DNA from: Nitrospirota bacterium
GTDB lineage: Bacteria > Nitrospirota > Nitrospiria > Nitrospirales > NS-4
DNA length: 26,685 nt
Direction: 5' to 3'
NCBI GenBank assembly: GCA_005877525.1
Contig: VBON01000067.1
Span: 487 to 27,171, forward strand
How positions within the stretch are numbered: position 1 is the stretch's first letter; every line of letters starts with the position of its first letter. The notes below the pieces were generated by a model. That model was given only the letters and a program-made list of their open reading frames with translations. It was not told the DNA's origin and did no database searches. Shown piece by piece: positions 8,955 to 17,979 of this stretch. The position numbers and the translations under genes are program-made.

Positions 8955-9080
8955 AGTTCACCCCTTTGAGATGGGCTTAAAGAGCTGCTGTTTTCGGGAA
9001 TCCTATCACAGGAGTCTCACGCTTGGCACGGAAGCATGATCTGTCTGGCGGGAGCCCTGGCCCTTATGGTATGCCAGGCC

Positions 9081-11210
9081 ATGGCCGTGCCCTTGCTTTT
9101 GGTGATCCCACCCCTGACCCAGCTGAATACCCCATATCCATCGACCGCCTACTTGACGGGGTTTCTCCGATCGCGCGGATATGAGGTCAGTCAGGCGGAT
9201 GTAGGAATTGACATGGTCCTCGCGCTGTTTTCGCGCGACGGCCTCACGCGGGCATTCGAGGAAATTCGCTCCCTTCCGGGAGAACTTCCGGGTGAGGCGC
9301 GGCAGATGCTCGCGCTGCAGCGCCACTACCTTGACTCCATCGACCCGGTCGTGGCGTTTCTGCAAGGTCAAGATCCGACGCTTGCGCCTCGGATCTGTCA
9401 GGGTGGATTCCTGCCACAAGGCCCTCGATTCGCAAGTGCGAAGGAGAACGTACAGGCCGCACAGTCCGACAGGGCGCGACATTGGGCGACGCTGTATCTG
9501 GAAGACCTGGCTGATCTGATCCACGAAACCATCGCGCCCCGCTTCGCCTTGAGCCGCTACGCCGAGCAGGTAGGGACCGCCGCATCCTCTTTTGACACGG
9601 TCCTGCAAGCCTTGGCCGAGCCGCACGGCTTTACCGACGAGTTGATGCTGGCTGCCCTTTGGCGACACGTGGAGGCTCAGGACCCCGCGATAGTGGGTTT
9701 GACCGTGCCGTTTCCGGGCAATCTCTATGGGGCACTCTGCATTGCCCAGTCCTTGAAATCGCGTCGTCCGTGGGTGCGCCTTGTGTTGGGCGGGGGCTAT
9801 GTGAATACGGAGCTGCGACGCCTCAGCGATCCGCGTCTGTTCGATTACCTCGACTATGTGACGTTAGATGACGGGGAGCGACCTCTCCTGTGCCTCCTGG
9901 AACATTTGGCGCACAAGCGCGAGGAACGCGCTCTGTGTCGTACGTTCGTGCGCTCAGAAGGCAAAGTGCTTTGGCGCGATGACGCCCGTCAGCCTGACTT
10001 CAGCATGGCGGAGGTGGGCACGCCGACCTATGCCGGACTGCCGCTCTCTCGATATCTGTCGGTACTGGACACGCTAAATCCCATGCACCGGCTCTGGTCC
10101 GATGGCCATTGGAACAAACTCACGGTCGCGCACGGCTGTTATTGGAAGCAATGCACCTTCTGCGATGTGGGGCTGGACTACATCGGACGATACGAAGCGG
10201 CGCCCAGTGAGCTTCTTGCTGACCGGATCGAGGCCTTAATCGCCGAGACGGGGAAGAGAGGGTTCCACTTTGTAGACGAGGCCGCGCCGCCGGCCGGCCT
10301 AAAGACCCTCGCGCTGACTTTGTTGGAGCGCGGAGTGGCCATCACCTGGTGGGGAAACATCCGCTTCGAACCGGCGTTTACGCCGGATCTCTGCCGTCTG
10401 CTCGCGGCATCGGGCTGCATCGCCGTCAGCGCCGGTCTGGAAGCGGCCTCGGATCGGCTTCTTGAAGAAATGAAGAAAGGCATTACGGTCTTCGACACCG
10501 CCCGTGTGAGCGCGGCGTTCCGGGGCGCCGGCATTTTGGTTCATGCGTATTTGATGTACGGGCTTCCGGGCGAAACCATCGCCGAGACCATTGAGAGCCA
10601 CGAGCGCGTCCGGCAGCTTTTTGCGCACGGCTTGATCCAGTCTGCGTTCTGGCACAAGTTCACTGCGACCGCTCATAGCCCGATCGGTCTTCATCCAGCA
10701 GATCACGGCATCCGGATCACGGGACCGGTGTTTGGCGGCTTTGCCGACAACGATCTTACGCATGAGGATCCGAGCGGAGAAGCGCCTGGCTGGCTGGGCG
10801 CGGGGCTCAGAAAGGCCTTGGGCCATTACTTGGAAGGTGAGGAACTCCAGGTGCCCAGGAACTGGGTAACTAAAGCGCTGGCTGGAGTGTCTCATGAAGA
10901 CGATCCTACGATCGAGCGGCGCATAGTCTGGATCGGCGGCACTCCCGTAATCGAAAATAGGAGGCGGGAACATTGTCGCGTGATTCTTCCCGGCCGGGCG
11001 GAAGACGCGCAGTTGCGGCTTCCGCGGGACAGCGCAGCATGGCTGATCGATCTGGTCCAAAAGGCAACGCCGATGCGCGATAAGCGGGAGAACTATCCCC
11101 GTCTTCAGGACGTGAGAGATAACTTTTTCCTCGGGCCACCGGCGTTCGGTACGTTCCTTCGATCGGCCGCGTGGAAGAAGGCCGGGGCTGTGGGGTTACT
11201 GTTGGTATAG
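9081..11210 (+). CDS. B12-binding-domain radical SAM protein
   Basis: PPLTQLNTPYP N-terminus, cobalamin-binding region (GLTVPFPGN..LGGGY), CYWKQCTFC Fe-S motif and FHFVDEAAPP. ATG 9081 is preferred over 9036. Confidence 0.92.
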   Translation: MAVPLLLVIPPLTQLNTPYPSTAYLTGFLRSRGYEVSQADVGIDMVLALFSRDGLTRAFEEIRSLPGELPGEARQMLALQRHYLDSIDPVVAFLQGQDPTLAPRICQGGFLPQGPRFASAKENVQAAQSDRARHWATLYLEDLADLIHETIAPRFALSRYAEQVGTAASSFDTVLQALAEPHGFTDELMLAALWRHVEAQDPAIVGLTVPFPGNLYGALCIAQSLKSRRPWVRLVLGGGYVNTELRRLSDPRLFDYLDYVTLDDGERPLLCLLEHLAHKREERALCRTFVRSEGKVLWRDDARQPDFSMAEVGTPTYAGLPLSRYLSVLDTLNPMHRLWSDGHWNKLTVAHGCYWKQCTFCDVGLDYIGRYEAAPSELLADRIEALIAETGKRGFHFVDEAAPPAGLKTLALTLLERGVAITWWGNIRFEPAFTPDLCRLLAASGCIAVSAGLEAASDRLLEEMKKGITVFDTARVSAAFRGAGILVHAYLMYGLPGETIAETIESHERVRQLFAHGLIQSAFWHKFTATAHSPIGLHPADHGIRITGPVFGGFADNDLTHEDPSGEAPGWLGAGLRKALGHYLEGEELQVPRNWVTKALAGVSHEDDPTIERRIVWIGGTPVIENRRREHCRVILPGRAEDAQLRLPRDSAAWLIDLVQKATPMRDKRENYPRLQDVRDNFFLGPPAFGTFLRSAAWKKAGAVGLLLV

Positions 11211-11393: not shown

Positions 11394-12977
11394 ATGACCT
11401 CCGCCAAGACTTTTTCAGGCGTTATACTCGTCATCACCCTGGCGTTAAGTCTTCCACGCGGAGTTGTCCTGGGCGCTGAAACCCAGCCTCCCGACCCGGT
11501 AAAGATTGTTACTCCCGAAGGTGAGGCCATGCCCCGTCCCCTCGCAGGAACCGAAGCCAATCCGGTTCTTACCGAACTGCGAGAAGCGATCCGGCTCAAT
11601 CCCAACCATGCGGATGCTCATTTTGCCCTGGGGGTGGAACTCTATACCACGGGCCACATTGCAGAGGGCATTGCTGAATTGCGTGAGGCTATCCGGCTTC
11701 AGCCCGATCATGCCGATGGGCGTTATCACCTCGCAATGGCGCTGATGAAGCAGCGCGATGAGCTGACGCGGGCTGAAATGAACCGAGCGGCCAGCAGCAG
11801 GGAACCAGTTCTGGCTGAAACCTACCTCGATCTCGGCAAGGCGCTCATTGCATTAGGAAAGTTCACTGCGGCTGTCATGGAGCTGCGTGAGGCCCTTCGA
11901 CTTCAACCGACCTTTGTTGAAGCACACGCAAGTCTCGGTGTCGCCCTGTTCAATATGGGCGATCTAGAAAATGCCATCGAGGAATATCGCACGGTGCTGA
12001 AGCTACAGCCCGAGGCCGGGCAGGCCCATCTGAATCTCGCCACGGCCCTGATGGGCCAACACGATTGGCCCGCAGCGCGCACAGAGCTTCAAGAGGCGCT
12101 GCGCTTACAACCCAATCTCGTCCAGGCTCAATACAGTCTCGGCGTTGTCCTGTACACCATGGGCGATGTTGCCGGCGCCATTGACGCTTATCGTGAGGCA
12201 CTGCGTCTCCAAAGCGATTTTGCCGAGGCGCATTACAATCTCGGTCTCATGTTGAAGCTGACGAATCAGGAAGCTGACGCCGTGCAGGAATTCCATCACG
12301 CCGCGCTCGCGGGCCTGCCCAAGGCTCAATACTTTCTGGGAGCCGCCTATGCTTCAGGCGTCGGAGCGGACAAGAACCTTGCAGCCGCCATCAGATGGTG
12401 GTTCCGCGCGGCCGAACAAGGGGTGACTCAGGCGCGAGAGGGACTTGCACAACTTCGTCGCACCGCAGTACTGCAAGCCAAGCAATCTCCTGACGAGGCG
12501 CGCGCCATTCTCATGGCGTTTCAAGACTGCCGGCGTGAGATCTGGTTCGAATTTCCGGATCTTCAGGGCAAGGCTTCCGAAGAAAGCGCCGGGATTGCCC
12601 TGCTGCGACAAGGACAATGGCAGGAAGCGATTCCCGTATTGATACGTGAGGCGTACGGATTGAGCGAACCAGCCCAGACGCAATTGCAGACTCTCTATGA
12701 AGAAGGGATCGAAGGGCAGTGGCCGGCTTATGATCCGCGGATCCTGTCCTATTTCAAAACGACGGCGGCGGAAGGACTTCTCCGCCCGCGCATCATGTTG
12801 GCGCGCATTTATACAAAGGGTTGGGGGGTCTCCCAGGATCTCAACAAAGCGATGAGCCTCCTCAAAGGAAATCAGGATGACGAGGCGCAACGCCTGCTAA
12901 AAGAGATCGCTGCCGTCCAGCAAGAACCGCAACAAGCGACGAGGAATACACAACCGCCCTCTCCAACCGTTCCGTAG
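11394..12977 (+). CDS. exported TPR and Sel1-like repeat protein
   Basis: A signal or TM segment after ATG 11394, multiple TPRs with a recurring LRLQP..A.AH..LG pattern, and Sel1 repeats ([33 protein letters not shown]; [17 protein letters not shown]). Confidence 0.9.
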
Positions 12978-12988
12978 TCTCACAATTC

Positions 12989-15763
12989 TTGGTAATCCAC
13001 GCCATTTTACGCTCTAAAATTTTCATTGCCGTTCTACTGAGCATTTTCTCGACGATGCTGGCCTGGAGCCTCTGGCAGGTCAGCGGGAACATGCTGACCG
13101 CACTCGAGTTGAGCCCGTACGACCATTGGCTGCGGAACAGGACCCCTGGCCCGATCAGCTCCGCGGTGATCATGATCACGCGCGACCGATTAAGCGAGAC
13201 CCGGTTCGGAAGCGGGCCGTGGGATCATGCGCTCCTGGCGCGAACCATTACCGCATTGCGAAGCGCCGGGGCTGTCGTGGTCGGTCTCGATATTCCGATC
13301 GGGGAGCATAGCCCGCCGGCCAGAGGGGGAGCAGCCAGTGATGCGTTGCTGGTGGAAGCAACCAAGACCGCCGGACGAATCCTCTATCCACTCTCGGTGC
13401 AGCTCTCGGCAGAGCAGGTCTCTAAGCAGTATCGCGGGCGATCCTTGTGGCAAGTGGTTTTGACCGCCGGCGCCTGGCCGATTCTTGCACAACATGCGGG
13501 AGAACTGGGCCATGCGCTGTCGCGTCCTGATGAAGACGGTGTCATTCGCAGGGTTCCGCTGTACGTCTTGCTCGGCGACCGCCCGCTTCCCGCGTTTGGT
13601 CTCGCGCTCGCGCAGGTATTTCTGCAGGTGGCGCCGGCTGAGGTGTTGATCCGCGCGGGGCAGCCCCTCATCCTGGGCAACGCCAAGTTTCCGGATGGAC
13701 ATGTGGAGCAGCTCTCGGTCCCAATGGACGAGCACGGGCAGATCTTGATCAATTATATGCCGGTGTCCGGTCCGTCCCTGTTTCCTTCGCTGCCGTTTCT
13801 GAGCGTGTGGACGGCGATTGAAGAGGGAGAAGTTGAGAAACTCAGGGAATGGGTCTCGGGCAAGATCGTCTACTTGCTCCCGTCGCCTGCACATGCCGCC
13901 TACGCGACCCCTGTGGGACAAGGTACATCCGAGACCATCCAAGCGAATCTGCTGAATATGGTGCTGACCAAGAACTGGATCAGGGAGTTCTCCCCCGTCT
14001 GGAGATTCGTTTGCGGTTTGATGCTCGCAGGACTCGCCGCCTGGCTTTTGCTGGGCTTACCCGGCTGGCAAGGACTTGGTGCCGTGGTCGCTCTCCTCTG
14101 CGGGTATATCGCCGCGGTATTTCTGGCCTTGCCGGTGGGAGGGGTTCTTCTGCCTGTCGTTATTCCTGTGGCTGCAGTTCTTTTGGCCGCGGGCGTCGCT
14201 ACGCTTTGGCTGCAATACTCTGGGAGTCATCAGATAAAACTACTGGAAAGCAGCATGCTGACAGTCCAGCAGGAGCTAGGAGCCGTTCGCGAGGCATTGA
14301 CCCGTCAGGAATCGAACGTCGAAGACCTGGAAGAAGACCTGGAGGTTGCCCGGACATCCGCTGTACGCTCGGCCGGTAAGGAGCAGGAGCTTGCGCAGTC
14401 GGTGGAGGTATACCGAAAGAAATTAGTCGAAGCGAACGCGGAGGAAGAAGGCACCCGCCGGCGGCTAGCGGAACTCGAGAGCAAACTCCGGGGGTTACGT
14501 ATCGCGACCACGGGGCCGGTTCGGCTTGGAAACGCCGAGCTTGAGCGGCTCCGTGAAGAGTGCGAAGCGATGGGCATCCTCACCTGTGATCCGGTGCTGC
14601 TCGCGTTGTTTCGTGATCTCAAGAAAAGCGCGCATTCTGTGTTGCCGGTCCTGATCTTAGGGGAAGCCGGCACCGGAAAGGAACTGTTTGCGCGGGCGGT
14701 TCACCGCCTCAGTCCGCGCGCCGGCTATCCCTTTGTATCCGTCAATACATCTGCCATCTCGCCCCACCTTTTCGAAAGCGAACTCTTCGGCCATGTAAGA
14801 GGCAGCTTTACGGGTGCCGTAGGAGACCGTAAGGGATACTTTGAGCTTGCGGACCGGGGCACTATTTTTCTCGACGAGATCGGCGATCTTCAGTTAGAGC
14901 ACCAGGGCAAATTATTGCGTGTTTTGCAAGAGAAGACGTTTTATCGCGTAGGAGCCGTCCGGCCGACGACGGTCAATGTGCGGGTGGTGGCCGCCACCAA
15001 CAAGGATCTTCGGCGGGGAGTGTCGGAAGGATGGTTCCGCGAAGATCTTTATTTCCGTCTAAAAGGTCTCGTGATAAGGCTGCCCCCTCTACGGGAACGG
15101 CCGCGAGACGTGGTCCTGCTCGCCGAACGCTTCCTCCGCGACGCGGCCGCGCAGGTTGGGCGAGGGGATCTGGCGTTATCGGCAGAGGCGCAGGCCACAC
15201 TGGACGCTCAGCTATGGAAGGGCAATGTCCGCGAGCTGCAACACTGCCTGCAACAGGCGGCGGCCCTGGTCGAAGGGAACGTCATTACGAAGGAAGATCT
15301 GCGGTTGATGCCGTCGGAACTGACAGACGTGCGGGGGCCAATCACTACGGGATTCGCCCCTGATCCAGGAAGCGATCAGGCCGTTCTGGCCTGCCTGCGG
15401 CAACAGCGGTTTGATATGCGGGCGACCGCTCGCGCGCTCGGCTGGGACCGCAGCACCGTCACGCAGCGGCTCAAGGGAATGGGCTTTCGGGCGTTAGTGG
15501 AATCGGGCGGCGATCGTGCGAAGGCAGCGGTCGCCCTCGGCGGTGATCCTGAACTTACCCGTACAGTCGAATTAAAGCTATCGGAGTATTACGAGCACCT
15601 CTTACAGAGCATTAAGGGCTTCGGGTCCGAGGAGGAAGCGGTAGCGGCCTGCAAAAAGCGTTACAAAAATCTCCCTGATCGCCATTTCCATTCCGTGGAG
15701 AGCTTGATCCGTCAGCAGTTCCACCGAGCCTCCTCTCATAAGCCTGGCGATTCTGGAGTTTGA
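12989..15763 (+). CDS. membrane-bound CHASE2-domain sigma54-dependent transcriptional activator
   Basis: N-terminal TM, CHASE2 ([37 protein letters not shown]), about 3 TMs and a long coiled coil. The AAA+ domain has [39 protein letters not shown] and WKGNVREL, followed by a Fis-type HTH and a C-terminal extension. Confidence 0.92.
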
Positions 15764-15796
15764 TCTTCGCCGTTCCTTTTTTCGTGCAATGTAGCA

Positions 15797-15839
15797 GGCC
15801 TGGTGCGGGGACTTCCCCGCATCCCTGCAGGGACAGGCC
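15797..15839. promoter_or_regulatory. nested palindromes, candidate upstream activator sequence or operon terminator
   Basis: TGCGGGGA-CT-TCCCCGCA (15804-15821) and TCCCTGCAGGGA (15822-15833), enclosed by GGCCTG/CAGGCC. Confidence 0.45.
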
Positions 15840-15926
15840 GACTTCATCGTGACGAGGCATTTCCTCACTCCGCTGTAAGCCTGCGCTTTCCCTCCGAAAT
15901 CCTCTTCTGATGGTCTCCGTTTCTTG

Positions 15927-15942
15927 TGGCCCCGCCCTTGCT
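15927..15942 (+). promoter_or_regulatory. sigma54 -24/-12 promoter of the OmpA-domain gene
   Basis: TGGCCCC-GCCC-TTGCT has exact GG-N10-GC spacing and lies 65 nt upstream of ATG 16008. Confidence 0.65.
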
Positions 15943-16007
15943 CTGCTTCCCTCCTGGCCGCCAACAGGCGGAATGGATAACCAACTATAAACGCGAGGGG
16001 GGAGCAC

Positions 16008-16847
16008 ATGTCGAATATTCTGAATCAGACTCAAGCGGCGGCGGCACCTGTCGGTCGTATGAGTTCCGTTGGGACGGGCCAGACGGATCAAGGCCGCGCG
16101 AAGGTGATGCAAATCCAGCTGAAAGAGGTGGCCATCGTGGTCTTTGCGCTCCTGGTGATTGGAGGCCTGGTGGGCGGCTATTGGTTATACACCCAGCGAG
16201 AGGAAAGCTATGGCGAAGGAAATATTATCTTTTCCAAAGATGCCAAGCCGGCCGTCACGTTGAATGCCCAACCGGCCGTCACTGGCCCTGCTGCAAAGGG
16301 GGTCGCGGCGACCAAGACAACAGATTCCATTCATGCCGACATCTACTTTGACTTCGACCGTAGCCGGTTGAGCGCAGATGGGGTGGCCATTCTCCAGGAG
16401 AAGGCCGCAGTTCTGAAGAAGGATGGCTCCTGGGCCGTGTTGGTCCAGGGTTATGCCGATCAGCACGGGCCCGCGGCCTACAACAAGACATTAGCAGCGC
16501 GACGGGCCGGAGCGGTCAAGCAATTCCTGGTCGAGTTGGGCATTCCCGAAACGTCCATCAAGGTCGTGACTCTGGGCAAAGAGGGAGCGATCTGTGATGA
16601 TCAGAGCAAGGAATGCCAGCGGCTCAACCGCCGGGTCCACCTCGAGATGATCAAGATGGGACCCCTTTCGGCTTTTCTCCCTCAGGCACCACCTTTCGCA
16701 AAACAGGACCAGAAAGACTCTGGTGCTGGCCTGCCAAAAGAGCTAGGAGCGCATTCGGATAGTACGGCCAATTCGGATTCCTCTGATCAAGAGGGAGATG
16801 ACTGGATAAATCCTGAACCCGAGAGCGCCGGTTCACATTCACACTGA
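16008..16847 (+). CDS. OmpA-C (peptidoglycan-binding) domain protein with an N-terminal TM anchor
   Basis: IYFDFDRSRL, VQGYADQHG, YNKTLAARRAGAVK and LNRRV. One TM helix and an acidic tail. GAGGGG SD. Confidence 0.92.
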   Translation: MSNILNQTQAAAAPVGRMSSVGTGQTDQGRAKVMQIQLKEVAIVVFALLVIGGLVGGYWLYTQREESYGEGNIIFSKDAKPAVTLNAQPAVTGPAAKGVAATKTTDSIHADIYFDFDRSRLSADGVAILQEKAAVLKKDGSWAVLVQGYADQHGPAAYNKTLAARRAGAVKQFLVELGIPETSIKVVTLGKEGAICDDQSKECQRLNRRVHLEMIKMGPLSAFLPQAPPFAKQDQKDSGAGLPKELGAHSDSTANSDSSDQEGDDWINPEPESAGSHSH

Positions 16848-16985
16848 TCATGGTTGACGGGGCCGGCAATAGGTTAGGTCGTGGCGGCGGATCGCTACGC
16901 TTCTCTTTGAACGACAACTCGTCTAAGATACCTCGTCTCAGTGATCCTGAGAATTTTCTTGGACTGAAACCGTTACAGAGAGGCT

Positions 16986-17945
16986 ATGAGCATCGGGATA
17001 GGTCTCATTGGTCTCGGCCGCCATGGGGGTCGCTACGCCCAACATTTGCTCGATGGCGTTACCGGATGCCATCTGGTCGCGGTCTCACGACGCGACAGGA
17101 CAGCGGGACAGGCATTTGCTCAATCGGCAGGGGTTGTATTTGTTCCCGACTGGAGAGAGATGTTGGAGCGTAAAGATATTGATGCGATTGTGGTGGTGAC
17201 CCCGCCGAACGTCAACCACGACATTTGTATCGCGGCCGCCAAGGCCGGAAAAGCGATTCTTATAGAGAAACCCTTGGCGATGACCACCGAGGACGCCCGA
17301 GCAATGATCGACGCGACGCAAGCCGCCGGAGTTCCGCTGATGACAGCGCAGACTCTGCGGTTCACGCCGGTCCTCAGGCGTCTGCGGGAACGCTTGGCGG
17401 TCATCGGCAGTCTTGAGTACATGTGGCTCTCCATGCGAGTGGAACCCGCTCCCCATCATTGGCTGGAGGATCCGAAGCAGGCAGGTGGTGGGGTGTTGAT
17501 CGAGATCGGTATTCACCTCTTCGATCTCATCAGATACCTGACGGGCCATGAGGCTGTAGACGTTTGGGCTGAAATCGTGCGGTTGCATACAAGTCGCGTT
17601 GAGGACCTGGCCCTGGCCCGATTCCTGCTGGCCTCAGGCGTCCGCTGTTATGTCGAGGTCTCCAGGGTTTCAGCGGGACGCTCCTGCCGAATCGAGGCGG
17701 TCGGGGAAAACGGGCAATATGAAAGCCGATTGACACGGATTGAAGGGCGCAAAGTCGCCGAGACCGAGTCAGTCGCGGATGATCCTACAATTGTTAGCGT
17801 TTTGGAAGCGTTCGCCAGGAGTGTGGCAGCTGGGGAGCCGGTGCCTGTATCCGGGGAAGATGGGCTGCGCGCCGTCGTGATGGCGGAGGCCGCCTATCGA
17901 TCTGCGGCAGACGGGCGACCGGTCGCTGTGCCGGCAGCAGCCTGA
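16986..17945 (+). CDS. Gfo/Idh/MocA family NAD(P)-dependent oxidoreductase
   Basis: IGLIGLGRHG Rossmann motif, ILIEKPLA and GGGVLIEIGIHLFD. Confidence 0.93.
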   Translation: MSIGIGLIGLGRHGGRYAQHLLDGVTGCHLVAVSRRDRTAGQAFAQSAGVVFVPDWREMLERKDIDAIVVVTPPNVNHDICIAAAKAGKAILIEKPLAMTTEDARAMIDATQAAGVPLMTAQTLRFTPVLRRLRERLAVIGSLEYMWLSMRVEPAPHHWLEDPKQAGGGVLIEIGIHLFDLIRYLTGHEAVDVWAEIVRLHTSRVEDLALARFLLASGVRCYVEVSRVSAGRSCRIEAVGENGQYESRLTRIEGRKVAETESVADDPTIVSVLEAFARSVAAGEPVPVSGEDGLRAVVMAEAAYRSAADGRPVAVPAAA

Positions 17946-17979
17946 CTTCCGTCGCTGCATGCCGTTTCGAATGATGAGA

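Follow-up and report, generated by a model that had tools for sequence, protein, structure and literature searches.

Activators of sigma-54 RNA polymerase are, in the textbook account, soluble proteins that have to assemble into rings, bind enhancers at a distance and make the DNA loop, and CHASE2 is a widespread sensor domain for which, to our knowledge, no ligand is known. In a 26,685-nucleotide stretch of a Nitrospirota genome (contig VBON01000067.1 of assembly GCA_005877525.1, positions 487 to 27,171; hereafter the window), the two domains occur in a single 924-residue protein, predicted to be membrane-integral, whose gene lies between those of a secreted TPR/Sel1 repeat protein and an OmpA-like peptidoglycan-binding protein. 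The evidence presented here is computational throughout.

The described system to be compared first is that of Shewanella, in which pdsO-SO2195-SO2196 is reported to adjoin the genes of the regulator pair PghKR (PdsSR), to be strongly induced by PghKR upon peptidoglycan damage, and to include the gene for a target protein that keeps the envelope intact under beta-lactam or D-cycloserine stress (PMC13712847; 10.1101/2023.05.05.539549; PMC11580497). This role of the sortase operon in cell-wall stress was shown only recently. The accessible part of the mBio paper mentions Nitrospiria homologues of the system and names no regulator for them. As in Shewanella, the relatives of the window have a regulator pair beside an OmpA-like gene, which comes first and is followed by a TIGR03788 target and a TIGR03784 sortase, with an output directed to the envelope. 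Unlike PghKR, the regulator here is a single membrane protein that combines CHASE2 with a sigma-54 AAA+ domain and is accompanied by a secreted TPR/Sel1 protein, with no histidine kinase or response regulator. The present system also differs from the Shewanella pds system in having a sigma-54 type promoter and an OmpA-like protein that fails the PdsO model, and the window has neither the target nor the sortase.

The activator shares with NtrC1 and DctD the AAA+ sigma-54 domain, a C-terminal Fis-type helix-turn-helix (HTH), an upstream palindromic enhancer and a helical linker ahead of the AAA+ domain; in the NtrC1/DctD type, this linker holds the AAA+ domain in an inactive dimer. Unlike these proteins, it has no receiver domain or phosphorylation, its input would come from CHASE2 via four transmembrane helices, and it carries a GSFTGA loop and an extension of ~95 residues after the HTH. 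ToxR-ToxS, TcpP-TcpH, CadC-LysP and VtrA-VtrC likewise place a periplasmic sensor and a cytoplasmic DNA-binding domain on one polypeptide that a co-encoded partner modulates, although ToxR-like regulators are sigma-70-type winged-helix proteins with an N-terminal DNA-binding domain and one transmembrane helix (PMC10269533), whereas the activator described here is ATP-driven, acts on sigma-54, must oligomerise, and has a C-terminal Fis-type HTH and four transmembrane helices. Judged by its sequence, it would work like the ToxR-like class without being a member of it.

A parallel for the proposed partner is ExoR of Sinorhizobium and Agrobacterium, a secreted Sel1-repeat protein that binds the periplasmic domain of ExoS and sets its activity by envelope conditions; the sensor of the ExoR-ExoS/ChvI system differs in being a histidine kinase that is not known to contain CHASE2. 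The PEP-CTERM/exosortase system with PrsK, PrsR and PrsT also combines protein sorting with a sigma-54 activator and a TPR protein, but its activator PrsR is soluble and belongs to the response regulators, with a dedicated kinase (PMC1569441). Membership in the PrsR and PrsT families was rejected, both scores being below the cut-off (TIGR02915, 279 versus 502.6 bits; TIGR02917, 86 versus 312 bits).

Our preferred reading, to which we assign a probability of about 0.6, is that a one-component, membrane-embedded sigma-54 activator and a periplasmic TPR partner run an envelope circuit on the OmpA-like gene. The sensor architecture is not unique to this genome: the search for CHASE2 joined to Sigma54_activat that the original prediction had proposed returned more than 120 clusters when the CHASE2 half was used as the query, and the named ones come from metagenome bins of Nitrospirota and Rokubacteria/Methylomirabilota and have automatic annotations only. 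Yet it is not described in the literature searched, in which we found no paper combining CHASE2 and sigma-54 (or sigma54) and no description of a transmembrane sigma-54 activator. A survey of transmembrane transcription regulators makes no mention of sigma-54 activators (PMC10269533), and the Desulfovibrio vulgaris regulome names only GAF and PAS as common sensing domains of one-component activators (PMC4641369). The activator adds an output class to CHASE2, and a sigma-54 activator built into the membrane with an external sensor poses the problem of its mechanism at that site.

Organization of the locus

Five co-directional genes lie around the module, as read from the open reading frame table of the window and Pfam. 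The parts of the module are listed first, followed by the two flanking genes.

11394..12977, + strand: secreted TPR/Sel1 repeat protein, 527 residues (Pfam TPR and Sel1); proposed periplasmic partner or co-sensor of CHASE2
12989..15763, + strand: sigma-54 enhancer-binding protein, predicted membrane-integral, 924 residues, TTG start (Pfam, NCBIfam, AlphaFold2 model, orthologue alignments)
13085..13993, + strand: CHASE2-encoding part of the activator gene, predicted periplasmic domain (PF05226, 108 bits)
15374-15736, + strand: C-terminal domain of the activator, residues 796-916 (AlphaFold2 model)
15804..15833, no strand: candidate enhancer (upstream activating sequence), an 18-bp palindrome and an abutting 12-bp palindrome
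15927..15942, + strand: predicted sigma-54 promoter, -24 GG at 15928-15929 and -12 GC at 15940-15941
16008..16847, + strand: OmpA-like peptidoglycan-binding protein, 279 residues (PF00691, 64 bits); proposed target gene
9036-11210, + strand: B12-type (B12-binding) radical SAM gene (reading frame and domain calls)
16986..17945, + strand: GFO/IDH/MocA oxidoreductase, in the slot that the sortase target and class GN sortase occupy in close relatives

The original prediction, made from the letters of the window, had described a regulator gene 11 nucleotides from the TPR/Sel1 gene, a protein with one transmembrane helix, CHASE2, three further transmembrane helices, a coiled coil of about 100 residues (the helical linker below) and an AAA+ domain with GSFTGA, the absence of kinase, REC, PAS and GAF domains, and a -24/-12 promoter ahead of the OmpA-like gene. 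Each of these was recovered: the TTG start of the regulator lies 11 nucleotides past the TPR stop codon, Pfam and the AlphaFold2 model give the same domain order, no Pfam match to any of the four excluded domains was obtained on the 924-residue protein, and the promoter is kept across 14 loci.

The B12-binding radical SAM gene stands 5' of the TPR gene in five loci from two genera (the window, G002, G003, G056 and G044) and not elsewhere.

The activator and its predicted membrane topology

The activator matched CHASE2 and Sigma54_activat well above the Pfam cut-offs (PF05226, 108.2 bits against 26.3; PF00158, 207.8 bits against 20.2), AAA_lid_14 was also matched, and HTH_8 reached 24 bits against a cut-off of 22. 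Its AAA+ domain carries the Walker motifs GEAGTGKE and FLDEIGD, with core residues invariant in 109 relatives. GSFTGA, a variant of the sigma-54-contacting GAFTGA loop, was observed in 16 of the 18 orthologues and GSFSGA in the remaining two; the D. vulgaris activator DVU3220, to which targets have been assigned, also has GSFTGA (PMC4641369). The genome of the window contains rpoN, on contig C172. By its PF00158 domain, Walker A and B motifs, GAFTGA-type loop and HTH, together with the enhancer, the promoter and rpoN, the protein is on sequence grounds an enhancer-binding protein.

A full-length AlphaFold2 model was built on the 109 relatives, with a mean predicted local distance difference test (pLDDT) value of 87.8. 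In this model, the first transmembrane helix comprises residues 10-32, the alpha/beta CHASE2 ectodomain residues 33-335, and the second to fourth transmembrane helices lie within residues 336-412 (helices 336-356, 360-384 and 391 onward), so that CHASE2 is flanked by one N-terminal and three C-terminal transmembrane helices, in a topology that is predicted. The last transmembrane helix continues as a long helix (391-459), which is followed by a low-confidence turn and a second long helix (466-502). Residues 413-502 constitute the helical linker, the sequence of which is highly conserved in the orthologue alignment. The AAA+ domain follows at residues 534-772 and is joined by a disordered link (777-791) to a seven-helix C-terminal domain (796-916). 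By analogy with NtrC1 and DctD, we see an even chance that assembly of the AAA+ domain is controlled by the linker.

In public annotation the activator has 902 residues and starts at Met23 (ATG at 13055), which cuts the first transmembrane helix roughly in half; the 924-residue form with the TTG start is favoured by the orthologue alignment and by JGI calls. The helical extension of ~95 residues after the Fis-type HTH is strongly conserved and contains the motif C-x2-R-F-K-N-L-P-x-R-H. A fold search of the C-terminal domain against the PDB gave no match at E <=0.001, and the extended HTH domain is also present in a 523-residue sigma-54 activator cluster of AlphaFold DB. The genome of the window encodes a second, unrelated CHASE2 protein (L001, G000:C318:7834-11802), a 714-residue open frame with 191 bits to PF05226, which does not have the six-residue loop insertion present in the activator.

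Conservation of the gene neighbourhood, the palindrome and the promoter

Synteny was assessed from the gene tables of six contigs and by tblastn over 27 loci. The proposal that the three genes remain neighbours was borne out: the TPR/Sel1 gene is immediately 5' of the CHASE2 activator in 19 loci, which belong to several Nitrospirota genera and include one Rokubacteria contig, and the intergenic gap is mostly 4-12 nucleotides. An OmpA-like gene is near the activator in 12 of the 19 loci, either as the next gene (the window, L033, L034, L035/36, L037 and L044) or within 6 kb (L038, L046, L047, L049, L055 and L058). In G003 (L047, G003:C5:27000-44000), the activator gene is split into three reading frames, and the palindrome, the promoter and the sortase operon are retained.

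The -24/-12 element TGGCCCCGCCCTTGCT lies at 15927-15942, 67 nucleotides ahead of the ATG at 16008, and (T/C)GGC-N7-TTGC occurs at the matching relative position in 14 loci. Upstream of it, the palindrome TGCGGGGA-N2-TCCCCGCA spans 18 bp (15804-15821; spacer CT in the window) and has zero mismatches to the family consensus TGCGGGG(A/C)-N2-(T)CCCCGCA; directly next to it, at 15822-15833, degenerate half-sites form a second palindrome of 12 bp. The order of palindrome, ~90-135 bp, -24/-12 element and OmpA-like gene is common to the 14 loci, in which one or two extra half-sites accompany the palindrome. The activators of these loci are only 42-68% identical and their HTH is nearly invariant, as fits the conserved palindrome site.

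In the genome of the window, the palindrome was found at two sites when up to two mismatches were allowed, only one of which, that at 15804-15821, is intergenic. The other match (contig C72, one mismatch) lies inside a 434-residue open reading frame with no -24/-12 element and was taken as chance. At no more than one mismatch, exactly one site was present in each of three relatives with genomes of 3.7-4.3 Mb, and a reversed control pattern gave no match in these three genomes. Each of the single sites precedes OmpA-like or sortase genes, and in two of the three genomes it stands 12-20 kb from the TPR-activator pair. In addition, TGCGGGGA half-sites were observed between the 3' end of paralogous CHASE2 activators and the neighbouring surface-protein gene; in L059, one of these loci, a -24/-12 match stands between the half-sites and that gene.

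Targets of sigma-54 activators are, as standard practice, assigned from co-localised sigma-54 promoters (PMC4641369), and the shared layout suggests that the activator very probably drives the OmpA-like promoter. The three genes could instead be neighbours by descent with no regulatory link, the promoter being served by another activator, since other sigma-54 activators are surely encoded in the genome. We regard this as highly improbable: the three genes keep together amid outer flanks that are unrelated from locus to locus, the palindrome is unique or nearly so on the scale of a whole genome and its half-site recurs beside the paralogous CHASE2 activators, and the HTH is nearly invariant in step with the conserved site.

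The OmpA-like leaders of most loci contain a perfect anti-16S, Shine-Dalgarno-like sequence, AAGGAGGTGA, at ~+30 of the predicted transcript, which is ~50-58 nucleotides past the start of the -24 element and 70-110 nucleotides before the real start codon (L033:9039-9050, L034, L035, L037, L044, L046, L049, L055, L064 and L065). It was not found in the short leaders of the window (15943-16007) or L038, and no conserved upstream open reading frame follows it in the leaders of the OmpA-like genes. The element resembles an mRNA stabiliser of the STAB-SD type or a ribosome standby site. Together, the palindrome, the -24/-12 element and the leader element open the circuit to direct reporter assays.

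Two soil metatranscriptome runs contained contigs of 194-269 nucleotides, 90-99% alike to the window, over 16001-16197 and 16356-16991. No conclusion on expression is drawn from them, because starts, strand and level are not shown by these contigs and DNA carry-over is possible.

Predicted contact between the TPR/Sel1 protein and CHASE2

The TPR/Sel1 protein matches TPR_11 (157 bits) and Sel1 (44.6 bits) in Pfam. An N-terminal signal peptide is present in all 18 aligned orthologues, and the Rokubacteria copy among them has a lipobox.

CHASE2 residues 32-336 and TPR residues 150-515 were co-folded, each with an 18-row alignment of its own. Each of the three runs scored 0.76, compared to 0.00 for the best of three controls; among reference pairs, 58 of 80 solved complexes and 2 of 110 mismatched pairs attain this mark, counts that apply only roughly here, as the alignments were our own. 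At least 92% of the contacts are common to the runs, and the pLDDT of the partners is at least 88. In the predicted complex, the CHASE2 loop 106-123, with invariant G113, G114, D118 and A119, would sit in the concave face of the TPR superhelix, and the TPR protein would contribute residues 220-349 and 458-492, including invariant Y254, G257, A262 and F314. Conservation at the interface is 0.59 versus 0.49 elsewhere for CHASE2 (permutation p ~0.02), and 0.67 versus 0.60 elsewhere for the TPR protein (permutation p ~0.06). No solved structure was found that is related to the CHASE2 domain by sequence, so that the co-fold pass is not the recall of a known complex.

These results suggest that the TPR protein probably binds CHASE2, in line with the contact that had been proposed, and the predicted interface offers a first specific proposal, open to mutagenesis, for what CHASE2 reads. 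An argument from co-evolution of the loop was rejected: its motif RGGxASD also occurs in a CHASE2 cyclase, besides the paralogues neighboured by a protease gene, and only more distant CHASE2 domains are without it.

The TPR protein also matches MotX weakly, and the OmpA-like protein matches MotY and YfiB weakly (NCBIfam). These matches would fit a mainly structural role for the TPR/Sel1 protein at the wall, as a partner of the OmpA-like protein or the sortase target, comparable to that of Sel1-repeat MotX for OmpA-like MotY; it would then be co-transcribed with the activator only for dosage, and CHASE2 would sense something else directly. The gene order also mirrors yfiR-yfiN-yfiB, with a periplasmic protein first, a membrane sensor second and an OmpA-like protein last. 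We nevertheless consider such a role quite improbable, since the TPR gene stays with the activator even in loci whose OmpA-like gene lies at 12-20 kb or was not found in the vicinity, and since the co-fold with CHASE2 passes its controls.

The OmpA-like protein and the sortase operon of relatives

The OmpA-like protein has an intact peptidoglycan-binding motif: the motif residues D151, G154, Y158, N159, L162 and R166 are invariant in six OmpA-like orthologues, and so are two cysteines. Sequence prediction gives it a cytoplasmic N-terminus and a single signal-anchor helix and finds no lipobox; with the intact motif, these features suggest a tether from the inner membrane to the wall. The putative output of the circuit, a PF00691 protein behind the conserved promoter and palindrome, is consistent with the peptidoglycan-binding protein named in the original prediction. 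An identity with PdsO was rejected, because TIGR03789 gave 51 bits versus a cut-off of 152 and only the OmpA domain aligned, which leaves a positional analogue only.

Seven of the loci that have an OmpA-like gene near the activator carry two further genes behind it, for a VIT/vWA target and then a class GN sortase. The VIT/vWA protein of relatives scored 808 versus a cut-off of 552 bits with TIGR03788, 'marine proteobacterial sortase target', and terminates in LPQTAT with a hydrophobic helix and then a basic tail behind it; the sortase scored 209 versus a cut-off of 158 bits with TIGR03784. In G030 (L064, G030:C31), no target was detected, and the OmpA-like gene is immediately followed by the sortase.

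The window shares its outer flanks with the congener G002 (MsrA 85% and NUDIX 86% identical). Between the OmpA-like gene and NUDIX, G002 carries the target and the sortase, whereas the window carries the oxidoreductase (swap at 16848-17979). No sortase (TIGR03784) or VIT/target (TIGR03788) was found in the window or in its 71%-complete genome. The absence of the sortase pair between shared flanks indicates that the window holds a reduced version of the system. The circuit had been called self-contained, a description to be modified: the ancestral output is an operon of OmpA-like protein, target and class GN sortase, of which the last two genes are lost here, whereas the sensor, the promoter and the OmpA-like gene are kept. 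Weak terminator-like hairpins follow the OmpA-like gene of the window at 16880-16899 and 16936-16952.

Nine of the ten relatives with an above-cut-off target also have the TPR-activator pair, and PdsS (TIGR03785) was above the cut-off in none of 61 related genomes, PdsR not being searched on its own. From these counts, the simplest reading of the sequences is that the CHASE2 activator would be a non-orthologous replacement of the PghKR sensor. By its association with the class GN sortase operon, the module suggests a way in which nitrite-oxidising Nitrospira and related bacteria perceive and mend damage to the envelope.

Proposed circuit

In the circuit that we propose, the exported TPR/Sel1 protein would dock on the conserved loop of the outward-facing CHASE2 domain. 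A change in this contact, by release, titration or loss of the partner upon a disturbance of the envelope or cell wall, would pass via the three transmembrane helices and the linker to the AAA+ domain, which, by analogy with NtrC1 and DctD, would then form the active ring. The C-terminal HTH would bind the palindrome TGCGGGGA-N2-TCCCCGCA at 15804-15833, and the ring would remodel sigma-54 RNA polymerase at 15927-15942, thereby switching on the OmpA-like gene. We infer the direction of TPR action on CHASE2, the tethered as opposed to cleaved form of activity, and the nature of the signal.

Because the promoter heads a sortase operon in relatives and the Shewanella counterpart gives tolerance of cell-wall damage, the module is, by this analogy, most likely an envelope or cell-wall stress circuit with the CHASE2 activator in place of PghKR (PdsSR). 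Taken on its own, the identification of the signal as cell-wall or envelope stress is tentative.

Several observations weigh against the proposed circuit. The stress signal is drawn from the Shewanella comparison alone, with an OmpA-like protein that fails the PdsO model at 51 versus 152 bits. The TPR-activator pair occurs without a detectable sortase target in G024, G030 and G000, and G049 has a sortase target without this activator. The loop RGGxASD is also found in CHASE2 paralogues neighboured by a protease instead of a TPR protein, and is thus not specific to the TPR partnership. The loose pattern TGG-N9-TGC is at chance level in the window (17 found, 16.9 expected), so that the -24/-12 element has weight because it is conserved in relatives. 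Finally, a permanently tethered active ring would be unusual, and membrane association inhibits the sigma-54 activator RedR2, which is sequestered by BtdS (PMC10084136).

The inactivation of RedR2 by membrane sequestration would favour a scheme in which the activator is inactive while tethered and regulated proteolysis in or near the membrane frees a soluble AAA+-HTH fragment for the promoter; the TPR/Sel1 protein would then shield CHASE2 from, or expose it to, a periplasmic protease, as in TcpH-TcpP and ExoR. A trypsin-like protease gene is indeed located two genes 5' of the paralogous CHASE2 activators, and a CHASE2 cyclase is encoded near a caspase-like peptidase. In the AlphaFold2 model, low-confidence and possibly accessible breaks occur at residues 454-467 and 777-791, and the cluster P0041 is a 588-residue form without CHASE2, although it may be a truncated gene call. 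Conversely, no protease gene is present in the loci of the TPR type, ToxR and CadC act while tethered (PMC10269533), and the linker is highly conserved, as expected for a signalling helix and not for a disposable tether. Release by proteolysis is therefore unlikely in our estimate, and we prefer the tethered activator that is read by its TPR partner.

Paralogous loci and the wider family

The paralogous CHASE2 activators, which are 35-42% identical to that of the window, have other neighbours (L048:5902-13112 and L059:5744-12592). Upstream of them are the genes for the trypsin-like protease and for an unknown protein of 194-214 residues, and downstream is the gene for a CarboxypepD_reg/He_PIG surface protein. 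It is conceivable, at somewhat less than even odds, that the activator of the window and its paralogues form a truly transmembrane family in which a CHASE2 domain, read by a dedicated periplasmic partner, gates the assembly of an AAA+ ring that works while anchored in the membrane, and that the device described here replaced PghKR as the cell-wall-damage sensor of the class GN sortase operon in Nitrospirota and Methylomirabilota. From their gene content, the two paralogous loci look like the same design with different parts, and the partner of CHASE2 there is possibly the protease or unknown-protein set instead of a TPR/Sel1 protein.

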